Positions 9,211 to 45,181 of a stretch of 64,000 nt of DNA are shown here, in pieces. The stretch is taken from the NCBI GenBank assembly GCA_965217775.1, contig CBDCJH010000002.1, forward strand, positions 5,568,001 through 5,632,000, given 5' to 3'. Position 1 is the stretch's first letter; each line of letters begins with the position of its first letter. A program made the translations under genes and the position numbers. The notes below the pieces were generated by a model. That model saw only the letters and a list, made by a program, of their open reading frames with translations. It had not been told where the DNA came from and ran no database searches. Source of the DNA: Acidobacteriota bacterium (GTDB taxonomy: Bacteria; Acidobacteriota; UBA6911; RPQK01; JAJDTT01).

Positions 9211-11031
9211 TTACTTCGTGCTTCGTTTTCTCATTGCGGCCAAGGCCTCCTGCGCGCCTTCGGCCTCCCGGGACATGCCCAATTGACGGTACGCGTCGAC
9301 CAGAGCGGCGAGGGCGTGCATTGCCGTCGGTGAAGACTTTTCGAGTCGCACCACTTCCTTCAAATGAGTCACGGCATCCGCCCGCCGGCCCGCGTCCAGA
9401 TAGGCCCCGGCGGCGATCTGGTGCGCCCGTGAGTTCGCTCCAGTTTCCGTTCCCGCCAACAGCTTCGCCCGGCGCCAGACCGCATCATGGTCGGATAGCT
9501 GGACGTACGCGTGCAGAAGAGCCCGGTTCGCATCCGGGGTGTCTGCCGGGGCCTGGAGCAGATGGCTCTCAAGCTCCTTCGCAGACTCCTGATATCGCTC
9601 CAATGCCAGCAAAGTGAGTCCGAGCCAATAGCTCAACTGGGGGGTGTCGGGCGCCAGTTCCCGCGTCTTTCGCAACGAGGACAAAGCGCCTTCGAATTGG
9701 GAGGTGAGATAGAGGTCCATTCCCAGAAAATAGTGAGCCGCGGGCTGTCTGGGGTCCAGACGGATTGCGGTCCGAAGCCGGTCGATCGCCGCGTCCAATC
9801 GATTCAGATCATGCAGGAGCAGGCCCAGATTCATCTGTGCTTCCGCGAAACCGGGCGCCTCCCGCACGACCTCGATATAGGCGGCCTCCGCCTGGGGGTG
9901 GTCCCCCTGCTTGTGGGCTTCGACACCTCGTCGAAACGTCTGGAGGACGGGACTTTCGGGGTCCAGCCGCCGCACCTCGTCGGTGCCGGTGTCTCGAATC
10001 AGCAGGCCTTCCGCGGGTGCCGCCTCGGCCTGGCGAAGTTCCTCCGCCCTTGCCAGTTCTTCTCGGGCCTTCTCGATCTCTCCGGTCTGGCTGTACAAGA
10101 GCCCCAGCGTGTAGCGGGATTGGCGGTAATCCGGGTCCAGGCGAATGCTGCGTTTGAGAAGTTCTTCCGCCTGCTGTAACCGGCCGTTCTTCAGAGCCAA
10201 GCGGCCCAGCGCCGCAAGTGCTTTGGCATGGTTGGGGCGCAGGTTAACGATCTCGCGATAGAGTTTTTCCGCCCTCCCTGAAAATCCGTCGCTCTCGCTG
10301 ATCTTGGCCAGAAAGAACCTGGCGGTGGTGGAATCGGGAGCCAGGTCGAGACTTCGGCGCAAATGTTTCTCGGCCGCGGCGAAACGTCCCGCCTTGTACA
10401 AGTAGTACCCGAGGGAGAAATGGGTTTGACCGTTGGAGTCTCTCTCCACGGCTTCACCCAGGATGTCCAGGGCGCCTTGGACGTCGCCTCTCGCATGGAG
10501 GCATGCCGCCAGCAACGTGGTGTGCGGCTGGTCCAGCCGATTCGGTTCCTGAATCCGGCGCAGAGCCTGGATCGCTTCCTGGTAGAGGCCTCTTCCGTAC
10601 GCTTCTTCCGCCAGTTCATATAGGACGGGGTCCGTGGCCTCCACCTTCAGGGCCCTGAAGAAATAGGGGTCCGACTCCTCCGGAGGTCCGGTCTTCCGCT
10701 TGGCTCGCCACATCCACAAAAGGGCTTCACCGGAGTCGGGAGTCCGTTGCAGAGCGCTTTCCAGGGGACCTACCGCGTCGTCGGGCCGACTGGACTCGAC
10801 CAGGGTCCGTCCCAGGAGAATGAGCGCGCCGGCGTTCTCCGGCTCCCGTTCCAGCAGGCTCTCCAGAATCGATCGAGCCTGGGACAGATCGCCCCGTGCG
10901 AGGGCCGTCCGGGCCTCGCGCAGGCGGTCACTCGGAGGCGACGGGGAAGGGAAGGCGCGCTGCACCGGCCAGAACAGGAGTCCGGCCAGAATCAGAAGGG
11001 ATGAGGCTCGACGAACCGAAAGGCTTGGCAT
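9211..11031 (-). CDS. Secreted tetratricopeptide repeat protein
   Basis: Signal peptide and many TPRs (AEAQMNLGLLL, AAHYFLGMDLY). Confidence 0.88.
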   Translation of the reverse strand: MPSLSVRRASSLLILAGLLFWPVQRAFPSPSPPSDRLREARTALARGDLSQARSILESLLEREPENAGALILLGRTLVESSRPDDAVGPLESALQRTPDSGEALLWMWRAKRKTGPPEESDPYFFRALKVEATDPVLYELAEEAYGRGLYQEAIQALRRIQEPNRLDQPHTTLLAACLHARGDVQGALDILGEAVERDSNGQTHFSLGYYLYKAGRFAAAEKHLRRSLDLAPDSTTARFFLAKISESDGFSGRAEKLYREIVNLRPNHAKALAALGRLALKNGRLQQAEELLKRSIRLDPDYRQSRYTLGLLYSQTGEIEKAREELARAEELRQAEAAPAEGLLIRDTGTDEVRRLDPESPVLQTFRRGVEAHKQGDHPQAEAAYIEVVREAPGFAEAQMNLGLLLHDLNRLDAAIDRLRTAIRLDPRQPAAHYFLGMDLYLTSQFEGALSSLRKTRELAPDTPQLSYWLGLTLLALERYQESAKELESHLLQAPADTPDANRALLHAYVQLSDHDAVWRRAKLLAGTETGANSRAHQIAAGAYLDAGRRADAVTHLKEVVRLEKSSPTAMHALAALVDAYRQLGMSREAEGAQEALAAMRKRSTK

Positions 11032-11177
11032 CCTTTACCGTGGCGATCCGGGCCAGTCTACTACGGGGACGAGGTCCATCCCACCGGGCGCCGGGAAATC
11101 CGGGTCCGGCCCGCAGTCCGGTTTTGCCGTGTCCGGTTATGATAGCGACGGCCGGGGCCGGCGAAAGCGAGCATTCC

Positions 11178-12860
11178 ATGTTTCTTGTCCGCACCTGGAC
11201 ACTCCCGATTCTGCTCCTCTTCACCAATGCCGGAATCCCCCTCCTCGTTGGAGAGGGATCCTCTCCCGGCTGGCCGCTGTTCGTCGACGTTTCGGAAGAC
11301 GGCGGGGTCCCGTTTGTCCACCGTGCTTCCGCCACCCCCAAGAAGTTCCTGCTGGAGACCATGGGTTCGGGAGTCGCGGTGCTGGATTACGACGGGGACG
11401 GGCTCCTGGACATCTACCTGCTGAACGGGGCCAGACTGACCCCCGGCATGGCCCCGGGATCGATTCCGGAAAAATCTTCGCCCGAATACTGGAACCGGCT
11501 CTACAGAAACAACGGTAACGGGAGCTACACCGATACTACCGATGACGCCGGGGTAGCGGGCCGCGGCTATGCCATGGGCGTGGCGGTCGGGGACTACGAC
11601 AACGACGGCCGGCCCGATCTCTACGTCACCAACTACCCCTCGAACCAGCTCTTCCGCAATCAGGGCGACGGGACCTTCCGGGACGTGACCGGGACCGCCG
11701 GGGTCCGCGGCGGGGGCTGGTCCAGCAGCGCCGGGTTCTTCGACTACGACCGGGATGGTGATCTGGATCTGTACGTCTGCCGCTATATGCAGTGGGATTT
11801 CGACGATGTCTTCTGTGGCCGTTCCGACCTGCGGGCCTACTGCGACCCGAAACACTTCCGCCCCATTTCCAACCTGCTCTATCGGAACGACGGGGACGGG
11901 ACCTTCACCGATGCGACGGAAAGCAGTGGTGTCGGTGCCCACCCGAGCAAGGGCCTGGGCGTTGCCTTCAACGATTTCGACCGGGACGGCTGGCCGGACG
12001 TCGTCGTGGCCAACGACGGGGTGCCGCAATCCCTTTTCCTGAATCAGGGAAACGGCTCCTTTCGGGAGGAGGCTCTGCTCAAGGGATTGGCTTTCGACGA
12101 AGACGGGAACACCTTCGCCGGGATGGGTGTCCACTTCGCCGACTACGACCAGGACGGGTGGCCCGACGTGCTCATCACGACCCTCTCGCTGGAGACCTAC
12201 GCCCTTTTCCGCAATCTCTCCGGACGGGCCTTCGACTACGTTTCGAAACGCTCGGGCGTGGCCGCAGCCACCCGGCTCTACTCGGGTTGGGGAACCTTCT
12301 TCTTCGACGCGGACAACGACGGCCGGAAGGACATCTTCGTCGCTCAAGGGCACGTCATGGACACCATCGAGTCCACCAACTCGACCCTGAGCTATCTCCA
12401 GCCGCCCCTGCTGCTCCGGAACCGGGCCGATGTCTTCGAAGATGTCTCAGCCGAAAGCGGCCGCCCCTTTTGGAAATCCCATGCCGGCCGGGGAGCCGCT
12501 TTCGGAGACCTGGACAACGACGGCGACCTGGACCTGGTGATCGTCAACATGGACCGCCGGGTCCAGATTCTCCGCAACGAAACGGCCGGGGCGAACTGGA
12601 TCAGCTTCCGGCTGAAGGGGAACCGCTCGAATTCCGAAGGAATCGGAGCCGAGATCCGGATCACGCCGGACTCGGGAAACCGCCAGTTCGCCCGGGTGAC
12701 CCGGGCTTCCAGCTATCTCTCCTCCAACGACGTCCGGCGCCACTTCGGTCTGGCGGGCCATACATCCATCAAGGAAGTCAGAATCACCTGGCCCAGCGGA
12801 GTCGTGCAGACACTTCGATCAGTTGGTGCGAATCAGTTCCTCGAGATCAAGGAACCATAG
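11178..12860 (+). CDS. CRTAC1-family protein (FG-GAP/VCBS repeats + ASPIC/UnbV)
   Basis: Repeated DYDxDGxxDL motifs; C-terminal SNSEGIGA, SSYLSSND..HFGL, WPSG; start likely ATG 11178. Confidence 0.92.
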   Translation: MFLVRTWTLPILLLFTNAGIPLLVGEGSSPGWPLFVDVSEDGGVPFVHRASATPKKFLLETMGSGVAVLDYDGDGLLDIYLLNGARLTPGMAPGSIPEKSSPEYWNRLYRNNGNGSYTDTTDDAGVAGRGYAMGVAVGDYDNDGRPDLYVTNYPSNQLFRNQGDGTFRDVTGTAGVRGGGWSSSAGFFDYDRDGDLDLYVCRYMQWDFDDVFCGRSDLRAYCDPKHFRPISNLLYRNDGDGTFTDATESSGVGAHPSKGLGVAFNDFDRDGWPDVVVANDGVPQSLFLNQGNGSFREEALLKGLAFDEDGNTFAGMGVHFADYDQDGWPDVLITTLSLETYALFRNLSGRAFDYVSKRSGVAAATRLYSGWGTFFFDADNDGRKDIFVAQGHVMDTIESTNSTLSYLQPPLLLRNRADVFEDVSAESGRPFWKSHAGRGAAFGDLDNDGDLDLVIVNMDRRVQILRNETAGANWISFRLKGNRSNSEGIGAEIRITPDSGNRQFARVTRASSYLSSNDVRRHFGLAGHTSIKEVRITWPSGVVQTLRSVGANQFLEIKEP

Positions 12861-33264: not shown

Positions 33265-35181
33265 ATGCTCCACGTTCCAACAGTGATGGCTCTGGTCGGG
33301 ATCCTGCTACTGGCGCAGGCTGTCGGCGGCCGGGCCGGAGCTCAAGTCGAGCCGGAGCAGGCGCTACGGCGGGCGCTGGAACTCCAGCAGGCCGACGATG
33401 TGGACGGCGCCATCGAGCAGTACCGGGCCTTGCTGGCCCGATACCCGGACCATGCGGAGGCTCGCGTCAAGCTGGGCAACGCCTACTCTACGATCGGCCG
33501 CCATCAGGATGCCGTCACCCAATACGAGCAGGCTCTCGACCAAGGCGGCCTCAGGGATCCGACCGGTGTCAATTACGCCCTGGGGTGGGTCTATTTTCGA
33601 ATGGCCGAGTACGAAAGGGCCAAGCCGATCCTGGTCCGGGTCGTCGCCTCCGGCTCCAAGGGCAGGGAAGCCGTTCAACTGCTGGCATCCTGTTATTTCA
33701 ACTTGGGCGAATGGCGGAAGGTGATCGGCCTTCTGTCTCCGCATGAAGCGGAACTGTCCGAGTCGCCCGCTCTGACCTATCTGTTGGGCGTCGCGCTGGA
33801 AGAAGACGGTCAGATCGAGAGGGGAACGCCACTCGTAGAGACCGCCCTGAAAGAAACCGACTGGCCGACGGCACGGTTTCGGTCTGAGATGCGCTCGGAT
33901 TGGCTCAATCGACTGGCTCGTCGAGGAAGAAGCCTGATGGAGAGCGGGGACTACCCTGGGGCCGCCAGGCATTTGGAAAGAGCCCTCTCGCTCGATCCGA
34001 GGGTCCCCTCGTTGAACGTCACTTACGGGAAGTTGCTCCGGCTCATGAACCGGCACGCCGTTGCGGACCTGGCCTTCCTGCAAGAGCTTGAAATCAATCC
34101 CGACGATTACGATGCCAATTTGTTTCACGGCATCTATCTCTTCGAGAACGAACAGAAATATGAGGAGGCCCTGGCCTGCTTCGAACGGGCGTTGCGCACG
34201 CGGCCCGGCGCTGCCGATGCACGGTTTCAGATGGGACTCGTGTACAATTCCGCCAACCGGATTGAAGAGGCCATTCAAACCGTGAAGGGTGTGGTGGAGG
34301 AGAATTCCAATTTCCTGGAAGGCCATGTCACTCTCGCCGGCCTTTACTTTCGGTTGGGAAAAGAGGAGGAAGCCGAAAGCCACCGGGTCGCGGCCGAGCG
34401 GCTTCGAACCAGCAGGGACGGGCAGCACTTGATCAAGCTGGGGCAACTCTCGCAGGCCTCGGAGCTGTTCCAGCGCCAGAAGGAGGCGGACCCGTCGGAC
34501 CCCGAACCTTACTTCCATGAGGGCGTGGCCCTCTGGCAAGCGCAGGATTGGCAGGGTGCCGCCTCCGAATTCAAAGAGGCGGTGCGATTGGGCGACGGCG
34601 ATCTCAAATACACTCTCTACTATTCGAATGCGCTGGCCCAGTCGGGTCGGCATGAATTGGCGCGGACCATCGTGGAGTCCCTGCATCGGGATTGTTGGCG
34701 CCAACTGGACTCCCGTCAGGCCTGGATTCTGGGAGACACTTATTTTCAGATCGGAGAGCATGACCAGGTTCTGAAGGTCTTGGATTTCCTGGCTGGGAAG
34801 GACCCGAAGAATGCGCGGGTCGATCTGATGCGAGGCCAGATCCTTCTCCGTAAGGGAAACTACGAACGGGCACGGGCGTCCGCTGAAGGGAGCATCAGGA
34901 AACAGCCGGACAATGGCCTCGCCCACGCTCTGTTGGGAACAGCCCGGTATCTGCTCGGGGACCTGCCTGGGGCCAAGGAAGCCTTTCTCAAGGCCGTGGA
35001 ACAGGATCCCGGCAATCCGAATCATCTGCGCAAGCTGGGTGCGCTCTACCTGGAGTTGGGAGAGTATGAGCCGGCCATCGCGACTCTTGAGGGGGCCAGA
35101 CCAGCCGCTGCCAACATTCCCAGTATCCGCCGTCTTCTCGAAAGGGCGTACCAGGCAAGGGGAACCGGTTCCAAGGAATAA
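33265..35181 (+). CDS. Secreted tetratricopeptide repeat protein
   Basis: Signal peptide; many TPR units. Confidence 0.88.
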   Translation: MLHVPTVMALVGILLLAQAVGGRAGAQVEPEQALRRALELQQADDVDGAIEQYRALLARYPDHAEARVKLGNAYSTIGRHQDAVTQYEQALDQGGLRDPTGVNYALGWVYFRMAEYERAKPILVRVVASGSKGREAVQLLASCYFNLGEWRKVIGLLSPHEAELSESPALTYLLGVALEEDGQIERGTPLVETALKETDWPTARFRSEMRSDWLNRLARRGRSLMESGDYPGAARHLERALSLDPRVPSLNVTYGKLLRLMNRHAVADLAFLQELEINPDDYDANLFHGIYLFENEQKYEEALACFERALRTRPGAADARFQMGLVYNSANRIEEAIQTVKGVVEENSNFLEGHVTLAGLYFRLGKEEEAESHRVAAERLRTSRDGQHLIKLGQLSQASELFQRQKEADPSDPEPYFHEGVALWQAQDWQGAASEFKEAVRLGDGDLKYTLYYSNALAQSGRHELARTIVESLHRDCWRQLDSRQAWILGDTYFQIGEHDQVLKVLDFLAGKDPKNARVDLMRGQILLRKGNYERARASAEGSIRKQPDNGLAHALLGTARYLLGDLPGAKEAFLKAVEQDPGNPNHLRKLGALYLELGEYEPAIATLEGARPAAANIPSIRRLLERAYQARGTGSKE

Positions 35182-35202: not shown

Positions 35203-36921
35203 CTAATCTCGTTCCTCGACCCTGAGAATCTGGTCGGGGGCGACCTCTCTAAGTACCTGCAGCTTGCCCGAAGCCCAGCGGACCTCCAGCGACTCGATGT
35301 CCTCTTCCTTCCCCAGGCCGAAGTGAACCCGTCGGTCCGGTGAGGACATGAGACCCACCGTGGAGGAAACATGGTTCAGGAGGGTCCTGCCCGAGGCCGT
35401 CCGCAGTAAGACGGTGGCTCCGATCGCATCCCGATTGCTGGCCCGGCCGCGAAGGTCGACCATCAGCCAGTGGTTCCCGTTGTCTCCCGAATTTTGCAGA
35501 ATCCTCGGATTCTGGTTCAGAGAAGTGACGACGATATCCAGGAATCCGTCATCATTCAGATCTCCGAAAGAGGAACCGCGCTGGTAGGCAATACGCAGAA
35601 AATCCTGTCCCAGACTCTTCGAAACGTCGGCAAAGGTCGTTCCGTCCAGGTTTCGCAGCATGGTGTCATGCTGGGCGGTATCGGGGCTCAGATATTCCAG
35701 GCCCCCGTTGGCCGAATAGATGTCTTTCCAGCCGTCGTTGTCAAAATCGATGAATCCGCTGCCCCACCCCGTGAACTTGCGGCTCAGTTTGGCCACCTGA
35801 GTCCGGTAACTGACATATTCGAAGTACCGCCCTCCCTGGTTCTGAAAGAGCCCGTGGAGCTGATTTTTGAGGTCGTTGTAGAAAATGTCGACCTGTCCGT
35901 CATTGTTGAAGTCCTTGGCGTCGGCACCCATGCCCGAGCCGGCCACCGCAGAGCCCTTGTAGGCGACGCCTAGGAAAAACGATGCTTCCCGAAAGCTGCC
36001 GTTCCCCTGATTCAGATAGAGAAAATTCTGCACCGTGTCGTTGGCGACGAATACGTCCGGGCGGCCGTCCCGATTGAAATCGGCAATTCCCAGTCCCATG
36101 CCTTTGCCCAGCGCATTGGTGAGGCCCGCTTTCTGAGAGACATCGGCGAATCTGCCGCCGCCCAGGTTCCGGTAGAGCGTGTTGGAAACGCTGCGGACGG
36201 TTTTGGGACTGCAGTAGAACGGAGTTCCGTCGGGAAACGCACAAGGCTTGTCGGTCTTGGCATTCCAGTAGGTGTATTGGGAGACGAACAGGTCCAGCAG
36301 GGAATCCTGGTCGTAGTCGAACCAGGCGGCATCTACGCTCAGCAGATCGTCCGGTTTGTTGTCGAGGCCCGATCCGGCCGTCACCTCGGTGAAGGTGCCG
36401 TCTCCGTTGTTCCGATAAAGGGCGTTGGGTCCGGCATTGCCGATGAACAGGTCACGGTCGCCGTCGTTGTCGTAATCGCCGACGGTCACCCCGAAACAGT
36501 AGCCCAGACCGACTCCGGTCAGGCCGGCCTTCTGCGTGACGTTCTCGAATCTGCCGTTTCCCATGTTGCGCAAGAGGCAATTGTGAAACGAACGGTCCGT
36601 CTTCTCGACTTCCGGCAGCTTGGCGCCGTTGGTCAGAAAGATGTCCTGCCTGCCGTCGCCGTCGTAGTCGAAGATAGCCACGCCGCCGCACATGGGCTGG
36701 GGAAAGTACTTGCGGCCGGTGAAACTGTTATTGGACTGGTAGCGGATATTCGATCCGGGTGCGATGTCGGTGAACCGAATGGACCCTGCGTCGTTCCCGC
36801 GCGCGTTATTTTCGGATTGGGCACCAAGGACTCCCGTGACTGGGGTCGCCAAGACTGGAATGAGTACGTAACTCCACACCAGGGCCCATCCTGCGGGATG
36901 CATGTGCGTATGGTACGACAA
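35203..36921 (-). CDS. CRTAC1-family protein (FG-GAP + ASPIC/UnbV)
   Basis: DYDGDG/DYDNDG repeats; SNRDAIGA, VHFGLG, WASG. Confidence 0.92.
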   Translation of the reverse strand: MSYHTHMHPAGWALVWSYVLIPVLATPVTGVLGAQSENNARGNDAGSIRFTDIAPGSNIRYQSNNSFTGRKYFPQPMCGGVAIFDYDGDGRQDIFLTNGAKLPEVEKTDRSFHNCLLRNMGNGRFENVTQKAGLTGVGLGYCFGVTVGDYDNDGDRDLFIGNAGPNALYRNNGDGTFTEVTAGSGLDNKPDDLLSVDAAWFDYDQDSLLDLFVSQYTYWNAKTDKPCAFPDGTPFYCSPKTVRSVSNTLYRNLGGGRFADVSQKAGLTNALGKGMGLGIADFNRDGRPDVFVANDTVQNFLYLNQGNGSFREASFFLGVAYKGSAVAGSGMGADAKDFNNDGQVDIFYNDLKNQLHGLFQNQGGRYFEYVSYRTQVAKLSRKFTGWGSGFIDFDNDGWKDIYSANGGLEYLSPDTAQHDTMLRNLDGTTFADVSKSLGQDFLRIAYQRGSSFGDLNDDGFLDIVVTSLNQNPRILQNSGDNGNHWLMVDLRGRASNRDAIGATVLLRTASGRTLLNHVSSTVGLMSSPDRRVHFGLGKEEDIESLEVRWASGKLQVLREVAPDQILRVEERD

Positions 36922-36957: not shown

Positions 36958-38589
36958 TTACGGCCGCTGCTGCCAGATCTGAACCAGCTCCCACTCCACC
37001 CCTTCCCGGGCCAGGCCGAAGTTTCCCAGGATGATATCGGTGTGGCCGTCCCCGTTGATGTCACCCAGTTCCAAGGTTATGTAGTCGCACGGAATTCCGG
37101 TCAAAGACCGGGGTTGGAAGGATCCGGGTTGGGTCTGTTCGTACCAGACCACTCCCGAAAGATTGGTCTGACGGCGCAGCTCCTCGGTCAGATTGGGAAG
37201 GTACGAGGACGCAACCAAGTCGAGATCGCCATCCCCGTCGAGGTCCCCCGCTTCGGCCCGGAGGGCGCCGTAGTAGACGTCCACCCGGTGGTGGACAAAG
37301 GAAAGCTGGCCCCTGTTCTCCAGCCAAGACAGCCCGTGATAGGGCCTCATCTGTGCGCTGTCGTCCAGGGTATCTCCGTGGGTGAAGATCACGTCCAGGT
37401 CCCCGTCTTGATCCAGATCGATGACCTCGATTCCGCTTGAACCCCAGTGAGGGTGAGGAGCCTTGAACAGGTTCTTCTTTTCAAACACTCCAGATCCCCG
37501 ATTGAGGAAAGCAACGACCGCTTCATGTTCCTGGGACAGCAGGGCGATGAAGTCGGGCCGGCTGTCCCGATCGATGTCCACGATGGGAATGTGGATCGCG
37601 CCGGCACGAGCGTCCAATTCCACGGGTCTGAAATCGTCGGCTCCGAGTTTCGAGGCGTTCTCCGGATGGGACTCGTTCTCCAGGTAGTGGATGCCGCCCA
37701 CTGTCCTCCAGCCGAACTCGGCGACGATGACATCCAGGTCCCGGTCGCCGTCAAAGTCCGCCGCCCGGACATCGGCGACCCTTCCGACCCCGGTGAGCAG
37801 CCGGTGAACCTCGAACTCGCGCCTCCCGGTGCGCCGGAGCCAGGACACGGATCCGGTTCGTTGGTCGGTCGGCTTGGGCCATCCGAGTTCGGCAACCAGC
37901 AAGTCGATCCTGCCGTCCCGGTCCAAATCAACGGCCTCGGCATGGCATGGATTGTTGAGTTGAGCAATGGGCTGGAGGTCCATTTGACCGTCGTCGGGAT
38001 CCGTCCAGCTCACCCATCCGGAGATCATGTCGCTGACCACCAGTTCGGGGCCCTTCCGGTCTGAAAACAGCTCCAGAAGGCGGACATTCGCTGCCCCGGG
38101 CTGGAGCCCGCGAACCGTCTTGCCCGGCAGGAGCCGGCGACTGAACTGAAGCTCCGGACCCCCGCGCTTCGCCGTCCAAGGCGGCGTCTCCAATTGGGCA
38201 GGCGCCTTCGACCGGAAGTAGGAAGCCACCTGTAAGGCGTCGATATCCCAGATCGGCTTGTTGTGGGATTGGAGGAGGGAGAGATTGGCCAGTCTGAATT
38301 TCCTCTGAATCAGGCCGGGCCATTCCTGCTTGGGGAGGATCTCCGGAGGAGTCCATTCGTGGCACTGGGTACAGGCCTTCCGGATCTTTGTTTCCAAGGC
38401 CTCCTCTTCCGTCAGCTGGAGGCTGGAGTGTGAGGAAAGTGAGGGGAGTCCGGGTGAGCGCCCGCCGGCGACGGATCGGCCGGGCAAAAACAAGAGGACA
38501 ATCAGACACAGAACCGGGAGGCAGCCAACGGACTGACCTCGTGTCTTCAGGTTCGAAATAGTAGCTGCTGACATCAGCCTGACTTCCAC
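36958..38589 (-). CDS. Secreted FG-GAP/VCBS repeat protein with an N-terminal CxxCH motif
   Basis: CTQCH after the signal peptide; DLDRDG, DFDGDR, DLDQDG, DLDGDG, DINGDG repeats. Confidence 0.85.
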   Translation of the reverse strand: MEVRLMSAATISNLKTRGQSVGCLPVLCLIVLLFLPGRSVAGGRSPGLPSLSSHSSLQLTEEEALETKIRKACTQCHEWTPPEILPKQEWPGLIQRKFRLANLSLLQSHNKPIWDIDALQVASYFRSKAPAQLETPPWTAKRGGPELQFSRRLLPGKTVRGLQPGAANVRLLELFSDRKGPELVVSDMISGWVSWTDPDDGQMDLQPIAQLNNPCHAEAVDLDRDGRIDLLVAELGWPKPTDQRTGSVSWLRRTGRREFEVHRLLTGVGRVADVRAADFDGDRDLDVIVAEFGWRTVGGIHYLENESHPENASKLGADDFRPVELDARAGAIHIPIVDIDRDSRPDFIALLSQEHEAVVAFLNRGSGVFEKKNLFKAPHPHWGSSGIEVIDLDQDGDLDVIFTHGDTLDDSAQMRPYHGLSWLENRGQLSFVHHRVDVYYGALRAEAGDLDGDGDLDLVASSYLPNLTEELRRQTNLSGVVWYEQTQPGSFQPRSLTGIPCDYITLELGDINGDGHTDIILGNFGLAREGVEWELVQIWQQRP

Positions 38590-38649: not shown

Positions 38650-40839
38650 TCACCCGATGGTCAACACCCCTGCTCCGTAGGCCGGCAAGCGGACGCTGAG
38701 CGATACGGTGTCGCCGCGGCGGGCCAGTGACACCGGCTTGGGATCCTCGCCTTCCACGAAGAGCGACCCGGTGGTTCCGACCGATCTGCCGAGGGTCTCG
38801 GGAGAGAGCGAGACCTTCACCGTGCTCGGCCGGGGCCGGCCATTGGCCAGAGTCGCCGCAACACCGCCGGGCGACGTATAGACGTAGCCCTTGCCCCCCT
38901 CCACTTGCAGGCCGCGGTCGTCGCGAAACTGTCCATGACTCACAAAGGGCGCAGTGGCCTTGCGCAATCGCGCCAGACGGGCGACCTGCGCGGCGAGGTC
39001 CGGGTCGTCCGAGAGCAGCCCCGTCATGTCTTGAGTGGCGATGGCCATGTAGCTGCCCAGGCCAAAGGCGTCGGCGATGACGTCACGCTGGTTCTCGTCA
39101 ATGCACCAGCAGGGGACCATCGAGGGCAGGACGTACCGAAAGACATGCAGCAGGTCTTCCTCAGGCTTGCGCCAGCCCCAGATCCACCACAGGTCGATAT
39201 GCTGAGTGTTGTAGAGATCCGGAAGCTCGGCGAGGGTGTAGCTGCCGGGGTGTCGTTCCCGGGTCGTGCGAGTGAGTTCGGCATACCATTTGTAGGTGCG
39301 GTCCCACGCCTCCCACGGCGAGGCATGGCCGTGGTCGCGCGAAAGGCAGTAGTTCCACTCCGACGCCTGGTCGATGGAAATCATGTCGAAGCCGAGATCG
39401 AGGGTGCGCTCGAGGACCCGGCGCGCGAACGGAAGGAATCCATCCGCGCCGCAGCAGACGGCATGCGACCCCATTTCGTAGCCGGGATCGTTGTACCAGC
39501 CGCCGTCCAATGTTCCGCACGGAAAACCGAATATGGGGATGCCGAACAGACTCTGCTGGACCAGCGGCTTCAGCTCCTCCCAGGAGCTGTTGTATTCCAC
39601 CGCCAGGCGATAGTTCGTATAGGAGGTGAGGGAACAGCCGAGACGCCGCAACTCCTTCACGGCACGCCGCAGCGCGGCTTCCCGGTCAGCCGACATCTCC
39701 CAGAAGCTGCCGCGGTCCGGCCGGTAATACACCGACGCGGTGTGATCCCAGATCATGAGGTCGCTCACGCCGTACTTCATCGAATCTTTGGCGATGGCGG
39801 GAAGCTCGGAGAAATCGTGGTAACGCTCGCCCGAGGGCCCGTGGGTATGAATGTGGAACAGCCCGATCTTTTCCCGCAGCGCGGGGGGCGTGTCGCAGGG
39901 TTTCCACCATCCCGACAACCAGTCCCGGAGGCGGTCGGCCGTGGCATGCCAGTCGCCCTGGTGGACCCCCACCCCAAACTCGCAACTGGTCCAGGTCTCC
40001 CCCGGCTCGACAAACACGCCTGTGGCCCAGGTCCAGGTCAGGGAGATCTCCCGGGTGACGTAAAGAGCGTTCTCGAATACGAGGATGTGCGGCGAGGGGC
40101 GCTGCTCGTACTTGATGAAGGAGAGGCCGCCGCCGTCGTAGCTCAAATCCATCATCGGCAACTGATGGATCGGAACTTCGCCCAGCCGCAGGTGATGGTG
40201 TCCGAACGAATGGGTGCTGGTCCCCATCTCGGCGATTGTGGCGTAGATGTCGGGGTACAGTTTCTTGCTGGTGGTGATCAGATCGCGGGACTGACCAGGC
40301 TTGGCCAGGCGTCCGCCGATCCAGGGGAACCACATTTCGTGGACGCGAAAGGGACTCTCGTTGCGGATCTCGGCCGTGAAGAGGGCCTCCGAACTGCCTT
40401 CGGGCAGGCGCACCCGTACGGTCAGGAACACGCCGTACTTCCGGCCGCGAAACTGTAGCTCCGGAAAGTCGATCTCGAGCTGATCGCCGTTTCGGTTCAG
40501 GGACGGCCTTCCCGCCTGGTGCGACCTCAACGGCACCGAGTTGTGTTCGGGCGTCGGCACTACCAGCTTCGCCAGCCGGTGTCCGCGCGGGTCGTTCAGA
40601 TATTGCCGGCCCGTCTTGCGGTCGGTGATCTGGAGCAGGCTCCCAGTCCCCTCGTCGAACTCGAAACTCACCAGTCCGTTGTCCAGTAGCGTGACGGGCG
40701 GATTCACCTGCACGCCGGCGCCGCGCTCCGGCGTCCTCGGTCCCGGCGCAACTCCTGCAGCGGCACGACCCTCCACCAACCCGTAGGCTCCGGTCCCACC
40801 GGCGATCTTCATCAGTTCTCTGCGGTTGATCCTGGACAT
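38650..40839 (-). CDS. Tat-exported DUF6259-like (GH-like) protein
   Basis: NRRELMK twin-arginine leader; HQGDWHATADR motif; barrel-like C-half. Confidence 0.7.
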   Translation of the reverse strand: MSRINRRELMKIAGGTGAYGLVEGRAAAGVAPGPRTPERGAGVQVNPPVTLLDNGLVSFEFDEGTGSLLQITDRKTGRQYLNDPRGHRLAKLVVPTPEHNSVPLRSHQAGRPSLNRNGDQLEIDFPELQFRGRKYGVFLTVRVRLPEGSSEALFTAEIRNESPFRVHEMWFPWIGGRLAKPGQSRDLITTSKKLYPDIYATIAEMGTSTHSFGHHHLRLGEVPIHQLPMMDLSYDGGGLSFIKYEQRPSPHILVFENALYVTREISLTWTWATGVFVEPGETWTSCEFGVGVHQGDWHATADRLRDWLSGWWKPCDTPPALREKIGLFHIHTHGPSGERYHDFSELPAIAKDSMKYGVSDLMIWDHTASVYYRPDRGSFWEMSADREAALRRAVKELRRLGCSLTSYTNYRLAVEYNSSWEELKPLVQQSLFGIPIFGFPCGTLDGGWYNDPGYEMGSHAVCCGADGFLPFARRVLERTLDLGFDMISIDQASEWNYCLSRDHGHASPWEAWDRTYKWYAELTRTTRERHPGSYTLAELPDLYNTQHIDLWWIWGWRKPEEDLLHVFRYVLPSMVPCWCIDENQRDVIADAFGLGSYMAIATQDMTGLLSDDPDLAAQVARLARLRKATAPFVSHGQFRDDRGLQVEGGKGYVYTSPGGVAATLANGRPRPSTVKVSLSPETLGRSVGTTGSLFVEGEDPKPVSLARRGDTVSLSVRLPAYGAGVLTIG

Positions 40840-41098: not shown

Positions 41099-44000
41099 AT
41101 GCCCAGGAAACGTCGGGGCGCCCGCAACCGGCAGAGGAAGAGAAGACGAGTTCAAACGACCTCTGCGAAAAGGCGTCCGAGCGTCCGCAAGACCCGCCCA
41201 CAATCCGCACCGGAGAAACGGTCACCGGAACGAAGGCCCAAGAGTCTCTACCTGGGAATGTCAGTCCTGGGCGCGGTTGTGGCAATCGGGGCACTCTATT
41301 TCTTCAAGGATCGAGGTGAGCCCTTTCCCGGCAGGGTCTGGTCACAGGAGTACACGATCCCTCCCAGGAATCTGCCGCTGGGCGACGTGGAGAAGGCCTT
41401 GAAGAAAGTTCCGGAAGGGGCTGACGAATGGGATTCCGAAGAGGTGGACGTCGAGATCGAGAACAGGCTCCAGGAATTCGCCAGTGTGCTCAAGGGCGAA
41501 TCGGGTGCCGAATCGTTTCTGCCCGGGTTTCTCGGTTCCGACTTCAAAGGGACGCCGCTGGAGCCGTCAGCCACCCGGAAGGTCAAGGCTGAGGAGGGGT
41601 TGGAGATCTTCCGAGGCGAGCCGGACAGCGAGGAAAGAGTCACGGCGGCGGCGTTTCCGTCAGAGATCGCAAAGTTATTGCGTGAAGCCGCACGGATAGA
41701 AGACGTGAAATTCAAGGTGACGAGGATCGAATCGCCCCGGCTTCCGGGATCGACCGTCGTCAGCGACGTCAAATACACCATTCTGGGTCTGGACAAGGCC
41801 GGCGAATCCTTGCAGTGGATGGGAGACTGGCAACTCGACTGGCAAAAGGACCACTTGGGCCAATGGAAGCTCTCACGGCTGAAAGCTCTGTCCACTTCGC
41901 AAGGACGGAGTGTCCGCAACGCCTTCATGGAGGTCACTCAGCGGGCGCTGGGGAAGAACGACTCCTACCGGCAACAGCTTCTGCTGGGAGTCGAGTATTG
42001 GCAGGGAATCCTCGACTACGTCGCCGGAATGGACATCTATGGTCACAACGGCGTCTCGATTGCCGATATCGACGACGACGGCGACGAGGATTTCCATGTC
42101 TCTCAGCCGGCGGGCCTACCCAATCTGCTGTTTCGCAACCAGGGAGACGGAACCTTTCTGGACGTCACCGAAAAGGCGGGAGTCGACGTCCTGGACAATA
42201 CGGCGTCCAGTTTTTTTGCCGACACGGACAACGACGGGGATCCGGACCTCATCCTCATTGGCGCCAGCTCACTGCTTTTTCACAACGACGGCTCCGGCCG
42301 CTTCCGGCTGGCTCCCGATTCCGGGTTCGAGGCGATCGATGACACCGGCGGGAGCAAAGTGTCCGCTGCCGTGGCCGACTACGACCTGGACGGACATCTG
42401 GACATTTATGTCTGCTCATACGCCTTTTGGCAGGGACAGGAAGAACTGGGCAATTATCCCTTTCCCTACCACGACGCCAACAACGGCGCCCCCAACATCC
42501 TCTTGCGGAACCAGGGGAACGGGTCGTTCCGCGACGTCACCCGGCGATCCGGAATAGATCAGAATAATCTGCGTTACAGTTTTGCCGCGGCGTGGGGGGA
42601 TTACAACGGCGACCGATATCCGGACCTGTACGTCGCCAACGACTTCGGCCGCAACAACCTCTATCGAAACAACGGTGACGGCACCTTTACCGACGTGGCC
42701 CGAGAGGCGGGAGTGGAAGATATCGGAGCGGGAATGAGCGCGGCTTGGGAGGACTATGACAACGACGGCCGCCTGGACCTCTACGTGGGAAACATGTGGT
42801 CGTCGGCGGGTCAGCGGATCACTTCACTGCAGCAGTTCCAGACCCAGCGGCCGCAAGAGGAGATCCGGAGCTATCGACGCCATGCCAAGGGCAACTCCCT
42901 GTTCGCAAATCGGGGTGACGGAACGTTCGAGGAAGTCGGCGCCCAAGCGGACGTCGAGTTGGGCCGGTGGGCCTGGAGCAGCGATTTCTTCGATTTCGAC
43001 AATGACGGTCATGAAGACCTGTACGTGGTGAACGGCTTCATCACCAACGAAGACACGAAGGACCTCTGAAGCTTCCTCTGGCGGCAGGTCGTGTCGCAAT
43101 CGCCATCGCAGGATGCCGTCGCTTCCGCCCCGTCCGGAGCGCGGATCGGCTCCGAATACCGGAATGGGTGGGACGCGGTGAACTTGCTGATCCGGCAAGG
43201 CGGATCCCTGAGTGCGCGCGAGACCAACAATTTCTATATCAACTGCGGCGACGGAACCTTTGCCGACGCCTCGGGCATCACGGGACTGGACTTTCCCGAA
43301 GACGGACGTGCCTTCGCCACCGGCGATCTCGACCAGGACGGCGACCTGGATCTCATTCTAAAGAATCGAAATTCGCCGCAGCTCCGGCTGTTGCGGAATC
43401 AGGGCGGGAGCGGCTACAACGCGGCCAGTTTCGATCTCAGGGGCACGCGCAGCAACCGGGACGCCGTCGGAGCGAGAATCACCATCGAGACCGACGCGGG
43501 CTCCAGGTCGAAATTCGTCAAGATCGGATCGGGTTTCCTGTCCCAGAGTTCTCGCCGGGTCTGGTTCGGACTGGGGAACCAAGAAGGGATCCGGCAAGTC
43601 AAGATCGATTGGCCCAGCGGGGAAGTCCAGACTCTTCGTGATCTACCGGCCAACCACCGGATCGTGATCGTCGAGGGGGTGGGCAGAACGGAGACCATTC
43701 CTTTTCGGTCTTCCCAGCAGGAGGACGCCAGGGCGGGCGACGCGAGGGAAGCGCCTGCTGGTGATCCTCCGCTATACAGTGGAACCTGGCTGCTGGAGAA
43801 ACTTGCCGCCCCCAAGTTCCGGTTGCCCAGCGTGAATGGAAGGCATTATGGCTTGGGCATGTACCAGGGCCGCCGGGTGTTGTTGAATTTCTGGGCGACC
43901 TGGTGCCCGCCGTGCCGGGAAGAGTTGCGCGACCTGCGATCCCATCGGGAGGATCTGAAAGACCTCGGCGCCACGATTCTGGCGATCTCCGTCGATGATC

Positions 44001-45181
44001 CTTCAGACCGCGCGAAGGTACGAGAGTACGCCCGGCAGGAAGAGCTCCCGTTCCCGATCCTGCTTGCCGACGAGGACGTCATCGCTGCGTACAACCTGGT
44101 CAATCGCTTCCTGTTTGAAAAAATACGCGACTTGGCCGTACCCACCTCCATGCTTCTGGACCGGGACGGGAACATCGTCAAAATCTACCGGGGCAGAGTT
44201 CCCGCCCGGCAGATCATCCGGGACATTCAGAATATCCCTCGATCCGAAGAAGAGCTGGTCCGGGCGGCCTTTCCTTTTCCGGGTCAAACCTTCGGCATGG
44301 AATTCGTCCGGGACTACACGGTGATTGCGGACGCATTCCGAAGGGCCGGACTCAACGACCAGGCGGCGGATTACTACCAGCACCAGCTACTGGAGCAGGG
44401 CCACGACACGCCCCAATCGTGGAACAGCCTCGGGCTCCTCCATGAACGTGAGGGTAAGTTGGTCCAGGCTCGTGAGGCCTACGAGAAGGCCCTCCGTCTG
44501 AATCCCGACTACGCGGACAGCCACAACAATCTCGGCGCGATTCACTTGAAAGCGGGGGAAATCGACAAGGCCGTAGACAGCTACCGAACTGCCGGCCGCC
44601 TGGCTCCCTGGTCAGCCGACGTCCAGAACAACCTCGGCCATGCGCTGGTGGAGAAGGGTCTGTTCGGGGAGGCCATCCGGGCGTACCGGCGGGCCCATGA
44701 GATCGACGGTCAGGCTCCTCAGCCGCTGATCAACCTTGGAAACACTTACCTTAAAATGAAGCGTTTTCAAGACGCGATCTCAGCATACGGCAAGGTCTTG
44801 CAGATTTTTCCGGATTCCGCGGATATCCATCACAACCTGGGTTTCGCGTATCTGGAGTCAGGGCGACTCGACGACGCTTTGGCGTCGTTCGACAGTGCGC
44901 TTCGGCTTCGGCCTCAATACGCAAGCGCCCATAACAACAAGGGGACGGTCTTTTTGCGAAAGGGCAGGTTTGAAGAGGCGGGACGTGCGTTCAAGGGGGC
45001 GATCCAGGTCGAATCCGGGTTCAGGGCCGCCTACATCAACCTTGCCATGACGCACCTTCGAGCAAACGAAATTGAAAAAGCCGTGGACGTGCTCCGCCGC
45101 CTGCTCAAGGTGAATCCGGACGATCCCATGGCGCTGGACCTATTGGCACAGATCGAGCAAGTGAAGTCCTCGGCACCGTAG
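41099..45181 (+). CDS. Putative selenoprotein: TM - FG-GAP propeller - Sec - ASPIC/UnbV - TlpA/AhpC-like redoxin (WCPPC) - TPR; ~1360 aa with TGA 43067-69 read through
   Basis: Both ORFs share a frame; junction reads EDTKDL*SFLWRQVVSQSP; the stop falls inside the propeller; SECIS-like hairpin 11 nt downstream. Confidence 0.72.
43067..43097 (+). promoter_or_regulatory. In-frame UGA plus bacterial SECIS-like hairpin
   Basis: UGA-AGCUUCCUCUG (11 nt)-GCGGCA[GGUCG]UGUCGC; 6-bp stem with one G-U pair and a G-rich loop. Confidence 0.68.

Follow-up and report, generated by a model that had tools for sequence, protein, structure and literature searches.

We analysed a window of 64,000 nucleotides of DNA from an Acidobacteriota bacterium (contig CBDCJH010000002.1), in which two open reading frames (ORFs), 41099-43069 (656 aa, ATG start) and 43091-45181 (696 aa, GTG start), lie in one frame and are separated solely by the TGA codon at 43067-69 (context ..NEDTKDL-stop-SFLWRQVVSQSP..). 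Comparison with relatives makes it highly probable that this TGA is a genuine selenocysteine (Sec) codon with its own Sec insertion sequence element (SECIS). The original prediction, made from the letters of the window, held that the two frames are split by the TGA alone and that Sec insertion yields a protein of ~1360 aa; indeed, translation through the codon gives 1360 residues with no further stop, and the conserved TGA, the hairpin behind it and the decoding machinery of the genome speak for the proposed insertion. The 17-nt hairpin, 11 nt downstream, would be the bacterial SECIS for this UGA, to be recognised by SelB with Sec-tRNA(Sec) while the ribosome sits on the codon, and the outcome would be one 1360-aa selenoprotein in place of a 656-aa fragment.

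The read-through product would be exported or membrane-anchored, a topology that we infer from sequence, as we do Sec insertion itself and the redox relay discussed below. In it, Sec would open a subfamily-specific insertion (DL-U-SFFWRQVV...) late in an FG-GAP/CRTAC1-like β-propeller and be followed by an ASPIC/UnbV domain, a TlpA/ResA-like thioredoxin-fold domain with a CxxC motif, and TPR repeats. The UnbV_ASPIC domain is found only past the TGA, that is, only in the read-through product, and in two paralogs encoded in the window (10896-12860 and 35203-36921) the FG-GAP repeats are followed by UnbV_ASPIC inside one intact ORF, which agrees with the earlier claim that the TGA splits one domain.

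Conservation of the TGA and of the downstream hairpin

The junction protein was searched in six frames against 41 related genomes. The best 37 matches have one in-frame TGA each, in an open frame of 681-1400 aa, and span all eight same-genus genomes (93-96% identity), another genus (84%), distant homologs (50-58%) and a paralog clade (40-44%); the orthologs in the eight same-genus genomes have open frames of 1332-1400 aa with exactly one TGA. The TGA column is identical in 20/20 loci inspected, including the paralog clade and a second copy in the source genome, with junction peptides ..KDL-TGA-SFLWRQVVS in the orthologs and ..KDT-TGA-SFFWRHVVA in the paralog clade. The second copy (G000:C2:1465789-1468590; locus L053 1790-4591) belongs to this paralog clade, which is found across the order, and encodes 934 aa with FG-GAP, UnbV_ASPIC and a Redoxin domain with CGPC, without TPR repeats; its TGA lies at the equivalent column, within KDT-TGA-SFFWRHVVA, and its hairpin is GGCGCCAC-GUC-GUGGCGUC. 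One of the genomes, G016, is unpublished. Its loci L034 and L201, one example of the TGA form at 58% identity, enter the counts of the 37 best matches, of the 20/20 loci and of the 39/41 genomes with selA given below, as well as those for the class, the 301-genome sample and the hairpin, and contribute one alignment row; no conclusion rests on this genome.

Beyond these relatives, 137 genomes of the class gave 21 strong matches, 15 of them with the TGA and six without it. We further scanned 185,579 species genomes with the degenerate pattern D-x-[TGA/TGC/TGT]-S/T-F-F/L-W-R-Q/H-V-V, which returned at least 114 stretches; the codon count for 81 matches in 80 loci among these is TGA 80, TGC 1 and TGT 0. 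Record titles among the matches listed point to Verrucomicrobiota, Planctomycetota, Acidobacteriota and one metagenome-assembled genome (MAG) labelled as Flavobacteriaceae; Bryobacterales, Pirellulaceae and Roseibacillus are among the groups represented. With any codon allowed at this position, 301 genomes sampled evenly from the phylum gave 40 matches, 32 with TGA and eight with a sense codon (GCC, GCA, AGC, GGC, GCC, GGC, AAT and AAC). A TGA kept at this column in several genomes, which the original prediction had named as support for its reading, is thus found in several phyla. The contig with the Flavobacteriaceae title (L106, in the 1.7-Mb MAG G411) is the only Bacteroidota-labelled TGA carrier among the loci listed; it may be mis-binned, or its MAG may be incomplete.

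The hairpin consists of GCGGCA (43081-86), GGUCG (43087-91) and UGUCGC (43092-97) and begins, as had been noted, exactly 11 nt past the TGA. Its likeness to the element of Escherichia coli fdhF, to which the original prediction had pointed, holds in the E. coli K-12 gene, where the TGA is followed after 11 nt by GGUUGCA-GGUC-UGCACC; the two share an in-frame UGA, the spacing, a short stem-loop with an apical GGUC and the string GCAGGUC. On the other hand, the fdhF protein is unrelated and its element carries a bulged U, whereas the stem found here is a plain 6-bp helix in which a bulged U is not evident.

In 98 distinct 60-nt TGA segments, 96.8% of the cells for the six proposed pairs are paired, compared with 17-67% for slid registers. 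Pair 24-34 appears in five standard types (GU 42, AU 25, GC 15, CG 11, UA 1) and pair 22-36 as CG (91) or AU (2), and two pairs in all show two-sided changes. The covariation score of these 98 distinct TGA forms was reached by 0/500 shuffles. Kinship among the sequences inflates this statistic, and a stronger control is given by homologs that lack the TGA. Of 126 distinct TGA forms, 113 make the complete six-pair stem and another 7 make five pairs; the complete stem is absent from all 13 distinct non-TGA homologs, where two pairs form in five sequences, three in three, four in four and five in one. The peptide of these non-TGA homologs is SFFWRQVV in 12 cases and SFQWRDV in one, and some of the stem changes among the TGA forms cost an amino-acid replacement, e.g., Ser to Pro, Thr or Ala. 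As judged by this comparison, the hairpin is tied to the TGA and not to the encoded peptide, and the covariation that the original prediction had called for is present, with pairs that survive two-sided changes.

A simpler reading was rejected on these data: an isolated nonsense mutation with a 'SECIS' that merely reflects the coding of W-R-Q-V-V is contradicted by the conservation of the TGA in the DNA of relatives and by the absence of the hairpin from non-TGA homologs with the same or nearly the same peptide. Among the poorer fits, folding of L070 and L106 shows a one-base-shifted hairpin, GGCGACA-GGU-UGUCGCC, and the sole TGC (Cys) form of the scan is without the hairpin.

Decoding machinery and translation across the TGA

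The machinery that the predicted insertion presupposes was found in full in the source genome (G000; 6.43 Mb, 2 contigs), with selA at 443 bits, selB at 311 bits (cut-off 242), selD at 298 bits and a tRNA-Sec at 69 bits, which ARAGORN also reports as tRNA-SeC with anticodon tca (UCA). In this Sec-decoding set of selA, selB, selD and tRNA-Sec, too, the system resembles that of E. coli fdhF. We found selA in 39/41 related genomes and in 4/5 genomes of other lineages with the TGA form.

The same genome provides an internal control, a thioredoxin-fold gene with a TGA near C2:1863298 (Pfam match 1863199-1863540; ..FFSPG-TGA-GACIAEFP, a UxxC motif), which joins a TPR-like N-terminal region to an AhpC-TSA domain and is likewise cut by the stop codon. 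By its sequence it is probably a classical thioredoxin-fold selenoprotein, and its hairpin, UGCGGA-GUU-UCCGCA, also starts 11 nt past the TGA; a classical-looking selenoprotein gene of the source organism therefore shares the hairpin geometry. Formate dehydrogenase alpha is the commonest bacterial selenoprotein. Its homolog in G000 (FdhA; C2:3904674-3906704, 825 bits) has no in-frame TGA, nor does the SelD homolog, and no match to the Rdx family was found in this genome. Two crude scans of G000 for other selenoproteins recovered both FG-GAP genes; their output is mostly off-frame noise, and we draw no census from it.

Both sides of the TGA are under purifying selection. In comparisons with six orthologs over 300 codons each side, with synonymous divergence (dS) from 0.23 to about 1.3, the ratio of nonsynonymous to synonymous divergence (dN/dS) is about 0.08-0.1 upstream and 0.13-0.22 downstream. 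A pseudogene was considered and rejected, as it requires an unshared lesion and relaxed constraint downstream, whereas the TGA is shared across phyla and the downstream dN/dS is low. The only candidate for a restart is the GTG at 43091. The eight codons that lie before it and after the TGA specify the best-conserved peptide of the family, and within the genus they vary only synonymously. Four sequencing runs were compared as contigs; gaps in cover in the two RNA-library runs and the many short joints are not taken as findings. Contigs from two other sequencing runs cover the site and keep the TGA, close to the synonymous changes A>G at 43051 (GAA to GAG) and C>T at 43063 (GAC to GAT), so that the sense codon in reads considered by the original prediction was not seen. 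A 172-nt contig from an RNA library spans 43049-43220 without difference.

Sec-less homologs and alternatives to Sec insertion

The 120 best full-length homologs in the public protein collection (50-58% identity, about 1270 aa, mostly titled Acidobacteria) carry, within a conserved DL-x-SFFWRQVV, a variety of residues at the Sec column: A45 S39 N15 G13 E6 L1 C1. The expectation of the original prediction that other homologs would have Cys at this position was thus not borne out. Only two Cys forms were seen at the Sec column, L117 (from a Bryobacterales MAG, TGC, without the hairpin) and protein P0014, and these could be recent Sec-to-Cys conversions.

The presence of Sec goes along with that of cysteines elsewhere in the chain. 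A CxxC motif at +230 to +320 is found in 94 of 97 Sec forms vs 11 of 117 Sec-less homologs, a Cys after an S[GA]xExx motif (about +47) in 79 of 109 vs 4 of 69, and any Cys at +30..+70 in 85 of 112 vs 15 of 120; in the window gene, the first Cys past Sec is Cys716, at +59. Two changes suffice to explain the Sec/non-Sec label on a FastTree tree built from 205 junction regions. With the root placed on the paralog clade that bears Sec, proteins without Sec fall into two nested clades, both derived (116 rows, support 90; 3 rows, support 99). Our reading of these patterns is that Sec would be ancestral and redox-active, and that after its loss the site would have drifted among small residues while the relay decayed. 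In such a relay, Sec would be the redox-active nucleophile, perhaps paired with a nearby Cys, the fused CxxC domain would re-reduce it within one chain, and the TPR part would serve to hold on to a partner or a substrate.

Several observations weigh against Sec insertion. First, Cys occupies the Sec column in only 1/120 homologs, 1/81 scan matches and 0/8 non-TGA matches, while nearly all known selenoproteins have Cys homologs, as put in the main text of PMC12013277. The lack of Cys homologs is atypical for a selenoprotein, but it does not outweigh the remaining evidence; Cys homologs are the usual criterion and not a mechanistic requirement. Second, the correlation between Sec and CxxC comes down to two inferred losses on a quick FastTree tree with an assumed root, so that its counts are not statistically independent. 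Third, the folding energy of the hairpin is unremarkable (z = 0.64; 146 of 200 shuffles fold at least as well), and no Rfam match, and hence none to a curated bacterial SECIS model, was obtained in 42900-43300 at E up to 10. Single-sequence folding also gives a z-score that is not significant for the paralog, and z = -0.49 for the genuine fdhF element, which is likewise unremarkable, so that this measure has no power here; support for the hairpin therefore comes from the comparison with relatives and not from folding energy. Fourth, selA was not found in G009 and G012, two genomes of the same family that are 95% complete (best E about 1e-10, to other matches), nor in the 1.7-Mb Flavobacteriaceae-labelled MAG (G411). 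Both G009 and G012 have a tRNA-Sec (71.6 bits) alongside the TGA paralog; either their selA lies in unassembled sequence or their Sec-tRNA is made differently. Conversely, Sec-less relatives of the class also have selA (5/5 genomes with Sec-less forms), so that within the class genomes with Sec forms and with Sec-less forms are not told apart by their machinery. Finally, the sole RNA-library contig over the TGA may be DNA carry-over.

Three other readings of the TGA have to be weighed against this background. The one that survives best, though we hold it improbable, is that the UGA is read through without Sec, with the hairpin stimulating near-cognate or suppressor decoding (as Trp, Cys, Arg or Gly) to give a full-length protein without selenium. 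This would sit well with a column that tolerates many small residues and nearly lacks Cys, and with TGA carriers in which selA was not found (G009, G012 and G411). Against it stand the fdhF-type spacing and GGUC-type loop of the hairpin, with a geometry shared by the UxxC gene of the same genome, and the distribution of the machinery, which is complete in the source genome, represented by selA in nearly all relatives and in most of the other-lineage genomes, and retained as tRNA-Sec even in G009 and G012. Over a dS of ~1, moreover, a costly UGA should have given way to a sense codon if a standard residue would do, yet it persists across phyla, and where the UGA is lost the CxxC and the nearby Cys are lost with it, as expected for a redox residue.

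Less probable still is a conserved split gene, in which the UGA terminates a 656-aa propeller fragment and a 696-aa ASPIC-redoxin-TPR protein is restarted at GTG 43091. Gene callers do annotate the locus in this way (in the public protein collection, 56 of 114 new top hits for the N-terminal ORF stop precisely at ..DL, where public gene calls cut the genes at the TGA), and a GTG does lie 8 codons past the TGA. Yet the codons from TGA to GTG encode SFLWRQV, the best conserved peptide of the family, in the upstream frame and with synonymous variation; termination would cut the propeller ahead of its last blade and of ASPIC, parts that are contiguous in the paralogs and in 120 single-ORF homologs; and the two ORFs are never out of frame or apart in >100 genomes. 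Hardly credible is the third reading, by which the TGA is a nonsense mutation confined to this gene (a young pseudogene) or a fault of assembly or sequencing. The variable column (A/S/N/G/E in the 120 homologs) and the single base change from GGA or TCA to TGA could be adduced for it, but the TGA column is shared by all eight same-genus genomes, other families, other phyla and the paralog, dN/dS is low on both sides, and contigs of other runs keep the TGA.

Domain plan, relation to known systems and significance

The features of the proposed selenoprotein gene and of its surroundings are collected in Table 1.

Table 1. Features of the proposed selenoprotein gene and neighbouring cluster ORFs (window coordinates).
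Feature	Position	Strand	Basis or remark
Whole gene, TGA read through, 1360-aa multidomain protein (proposed)	41099..45181	+	End coordinate includes stop codon
Hydrophobic segment LYLGMSVLGAVVAIGAL, residues 50-66, preceded by a very basic N-terminus	41246..41296	+	Kyte-Doolittle mean 2.1 over 17 residues
FG-GAP / VCBS β-propeller repeats with DxDxDG motifs, limits approximate; region contains the TGA	42026..43378	+	Pfam, PDB sequence match
In-frame TGA, residue 657, proposed Sec codon	43067..43069	+	Column conservation
11-nt spacer, TGA to hairpin	43070..43080	+	Sequence
Proposed bacterial SECIS upper stem-loop GCGGCA / GGUCG / UGUCGC, in codons for W-R-Q-V-V-S	43081..43097	+	Pairing across relatives
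Cys716 in ..FYINCGDG.., 59 residues after Sec, candidate partner cysteine (putative role)	43244..43246	+	Cys counts in Sec forms
UnbV_ASPIC domain, residues 789-855, downstream of the TGA	43463..43663	+	Pfam PF07593, E 3.3e-18
Thioredoxin-fold AhpC-TSA / Redoxin (TlpA/ResA-like) domain, residues 903-1035	43805..44203	+	PF00578 E 3.6e-24, PF08534 E 1.9e-20
CPPC active-site motif (WCPPC 935-939; Cys936, Cys939; +279 and +282 from Sec)	43904..43915	+	Sequence
C-terminal TPR repeats, best stretches within residues 1106-1352	44375..45163	+	Pfam TPR_1 E 1.3e-49, other TPR families
Neighbouring cluster ORFs	10896-12860 (+), 33265-35181 (+), 35203-36921 (-), 36958-38589 (-), 38650-40839 (-)		

In the read-through protein, Pfam finds FG-GAP_3 (PF13517, E 3.6e-46) in six stretches and FG-GAP (E 5.1e-18). 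The segment at residues 50-66 would be a membrane anchor or export signal, with the remainder of the protein outside the cytoplasm; of the 73 Sec forms whose N-terminus is complete, 56 have a hydrophobic segment within the first 90 aa, which suggests that the family is exported or membrane-anchored. The thioredoxin-fold part matches the ResA subfamily in NCBIfam at E 8e-22, below its cut-off, as are the matches to the TlpA and WAxxUGC models, so that membership among TlpA/ResA-like oxidoreductases is proposed at domain level only. A common plan of FG-GAP and UnbV_ASPIC, usually with Redoxin/AhpC-TSA and TPR, recurs in seven Sec forms with four phylum labels.

Elsewhere in the window, TGA serves as an ordinary stop, ending 11 of 33 long ORFs (the split gene's own included). 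The gene lies in a cluster with Sec-less FG-GAP/ASPIC paralogs (27-37% identity to it), a TPR protein and a 729-aa ORF that has no Pfam match. Neighbouring genes, which include a GFO/IDH/MocA oxidoreductase, an HNH protein, an M81 peptidase and three ORFs that Pfam does not recognise, give no functional clue.

Among proteins of solved structure, the relative found for the propeller part is cartilage acidic protein 1 (PDB 9etn_A, E 5.4e-17), the sole match of the PDB sequence search, with which the window protein has the FG-GAP repeats and UnbV_ASPIC of the CRTAC1/ASPIC-UnbV group in common. In line with this, NCBI names its Sec-less relatives 'CRTAC1 family protein' or 'FG-GAP-like repeat-containing protein'. 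The likeness has its limits: the alignment to 9etn_A does not take in the Sec stretch, of which the window's paralogs have a much shorter version, and a CxxC redoxin domain and TPR repeats are fused on in the window protein. A second point of comparison are TlpA/ResA and the 'ResA-like WAxxUGC motif-containing protein', which share the AhpC-TSA/Redoxin domain that is fused here and have a UxxC candidate in the same genome. In thioredoxin-fold selenoproteins, however, Sec replaces the first Cys of CxxC within the thioredoxin fold, whereas the window protein keeps its CPPC and would carry Sec about 280 residues upstream, in another domain. In the near-absence of Cys homologs at the Sec position, the family resembles the glycine reductase selenoprotein A (GrdA), from which it differs by an unrelated fold, size and biology and by its abundant Sec-less homologs with A/S/N/G/E. 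According to the main text of PMC12013277, homology-based selenoprotein finders need Cys homologs, and GrdA is the only earlier selenoprotein thought to be without them; as far as that text goes, this dependence would explain how the family was missed.

Current annotation reflects the cut at the TGA. The few named hits are called 'VCBS repeat-containing protein', 'FG-GAP repeat domain-containing protein' or 'hypothetical protein', no full-length same-genus protein is found among the best 120 public hits (top identity 58%), and no model for the propeller part is among the 25 NCBIfam families listed for the protein. One public protein, P0134 (649 aa), is a same-genus N-terminal fragment that diverges just ahead of the junction (..FDNDGHEDPGPSHARNI), in what looks like a frameshift or an assembly error in the record. 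Among the top-ranked papers of our literature search, we found no FG-GAP, ASPIC, UnbV, CRTAC1 or VCBS selenoprotein, nor, in the papers searched on CRTAC1/ASPIC propellers, a member described as an enzyme or selenoprotein. The main texts of PMC13188914, PMC12013277, PMC2398784, PMC5029168, PMC1794560 and PMC4807772 contain no such family, which their supplementary lists may name otherwise. At the level of these main texts, the literature agrees with the earlier statement that no characterised selenoprotein belongs to this family.

The proteins described here would thus be a new selenoprotein family that relies on a known bacterial mechanism, set apart by its unusual fold, its exported multidomain build and the near-absence of Cys homologs. 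The chances appear evenly balanced for the more far-reaching proposal, that of an undescribed exported multidomain selenoprotein family of Acidobacteriota, Planctomycetota and Verrucomicrobiota in which Sec is ancestral in a propeller insertion rather than in a thioredoxin-like fold, has essentially no Cys counterpart and forms a redox centre serviced by the fused TlpA-like CxxC domain, with a relay that decayed where Sec was lost.

If Sec is inserted as proposed, a broad and large selenoprotein family is being systematically cut in two by annotation, and annotation pipelines should include it so that the roughly 1300-aa protein is called whole. Selenium would then enter the CRTAC1/ASPIC propellers, with a redox role open to experiment, and the selenoproteomes of abundant soil and marine phyla would grow. 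The Sec clades and the Sec-less clades with their decayed CxxC would amount to a natural experiment. The Cys forms L117 and P0014, which could be recent conversions, would lend themselves as natural controls. The main text of PMC5029168 notes organisms that use Sec although no selenoprotein gene is known in them. On the more far-reaching proposal, the family could account for such Sec-decoding bacteria, and it could be a main reason why the Sec machinery persists in genomes like this one, whose FdhA and SelD have no in-frame TGA.

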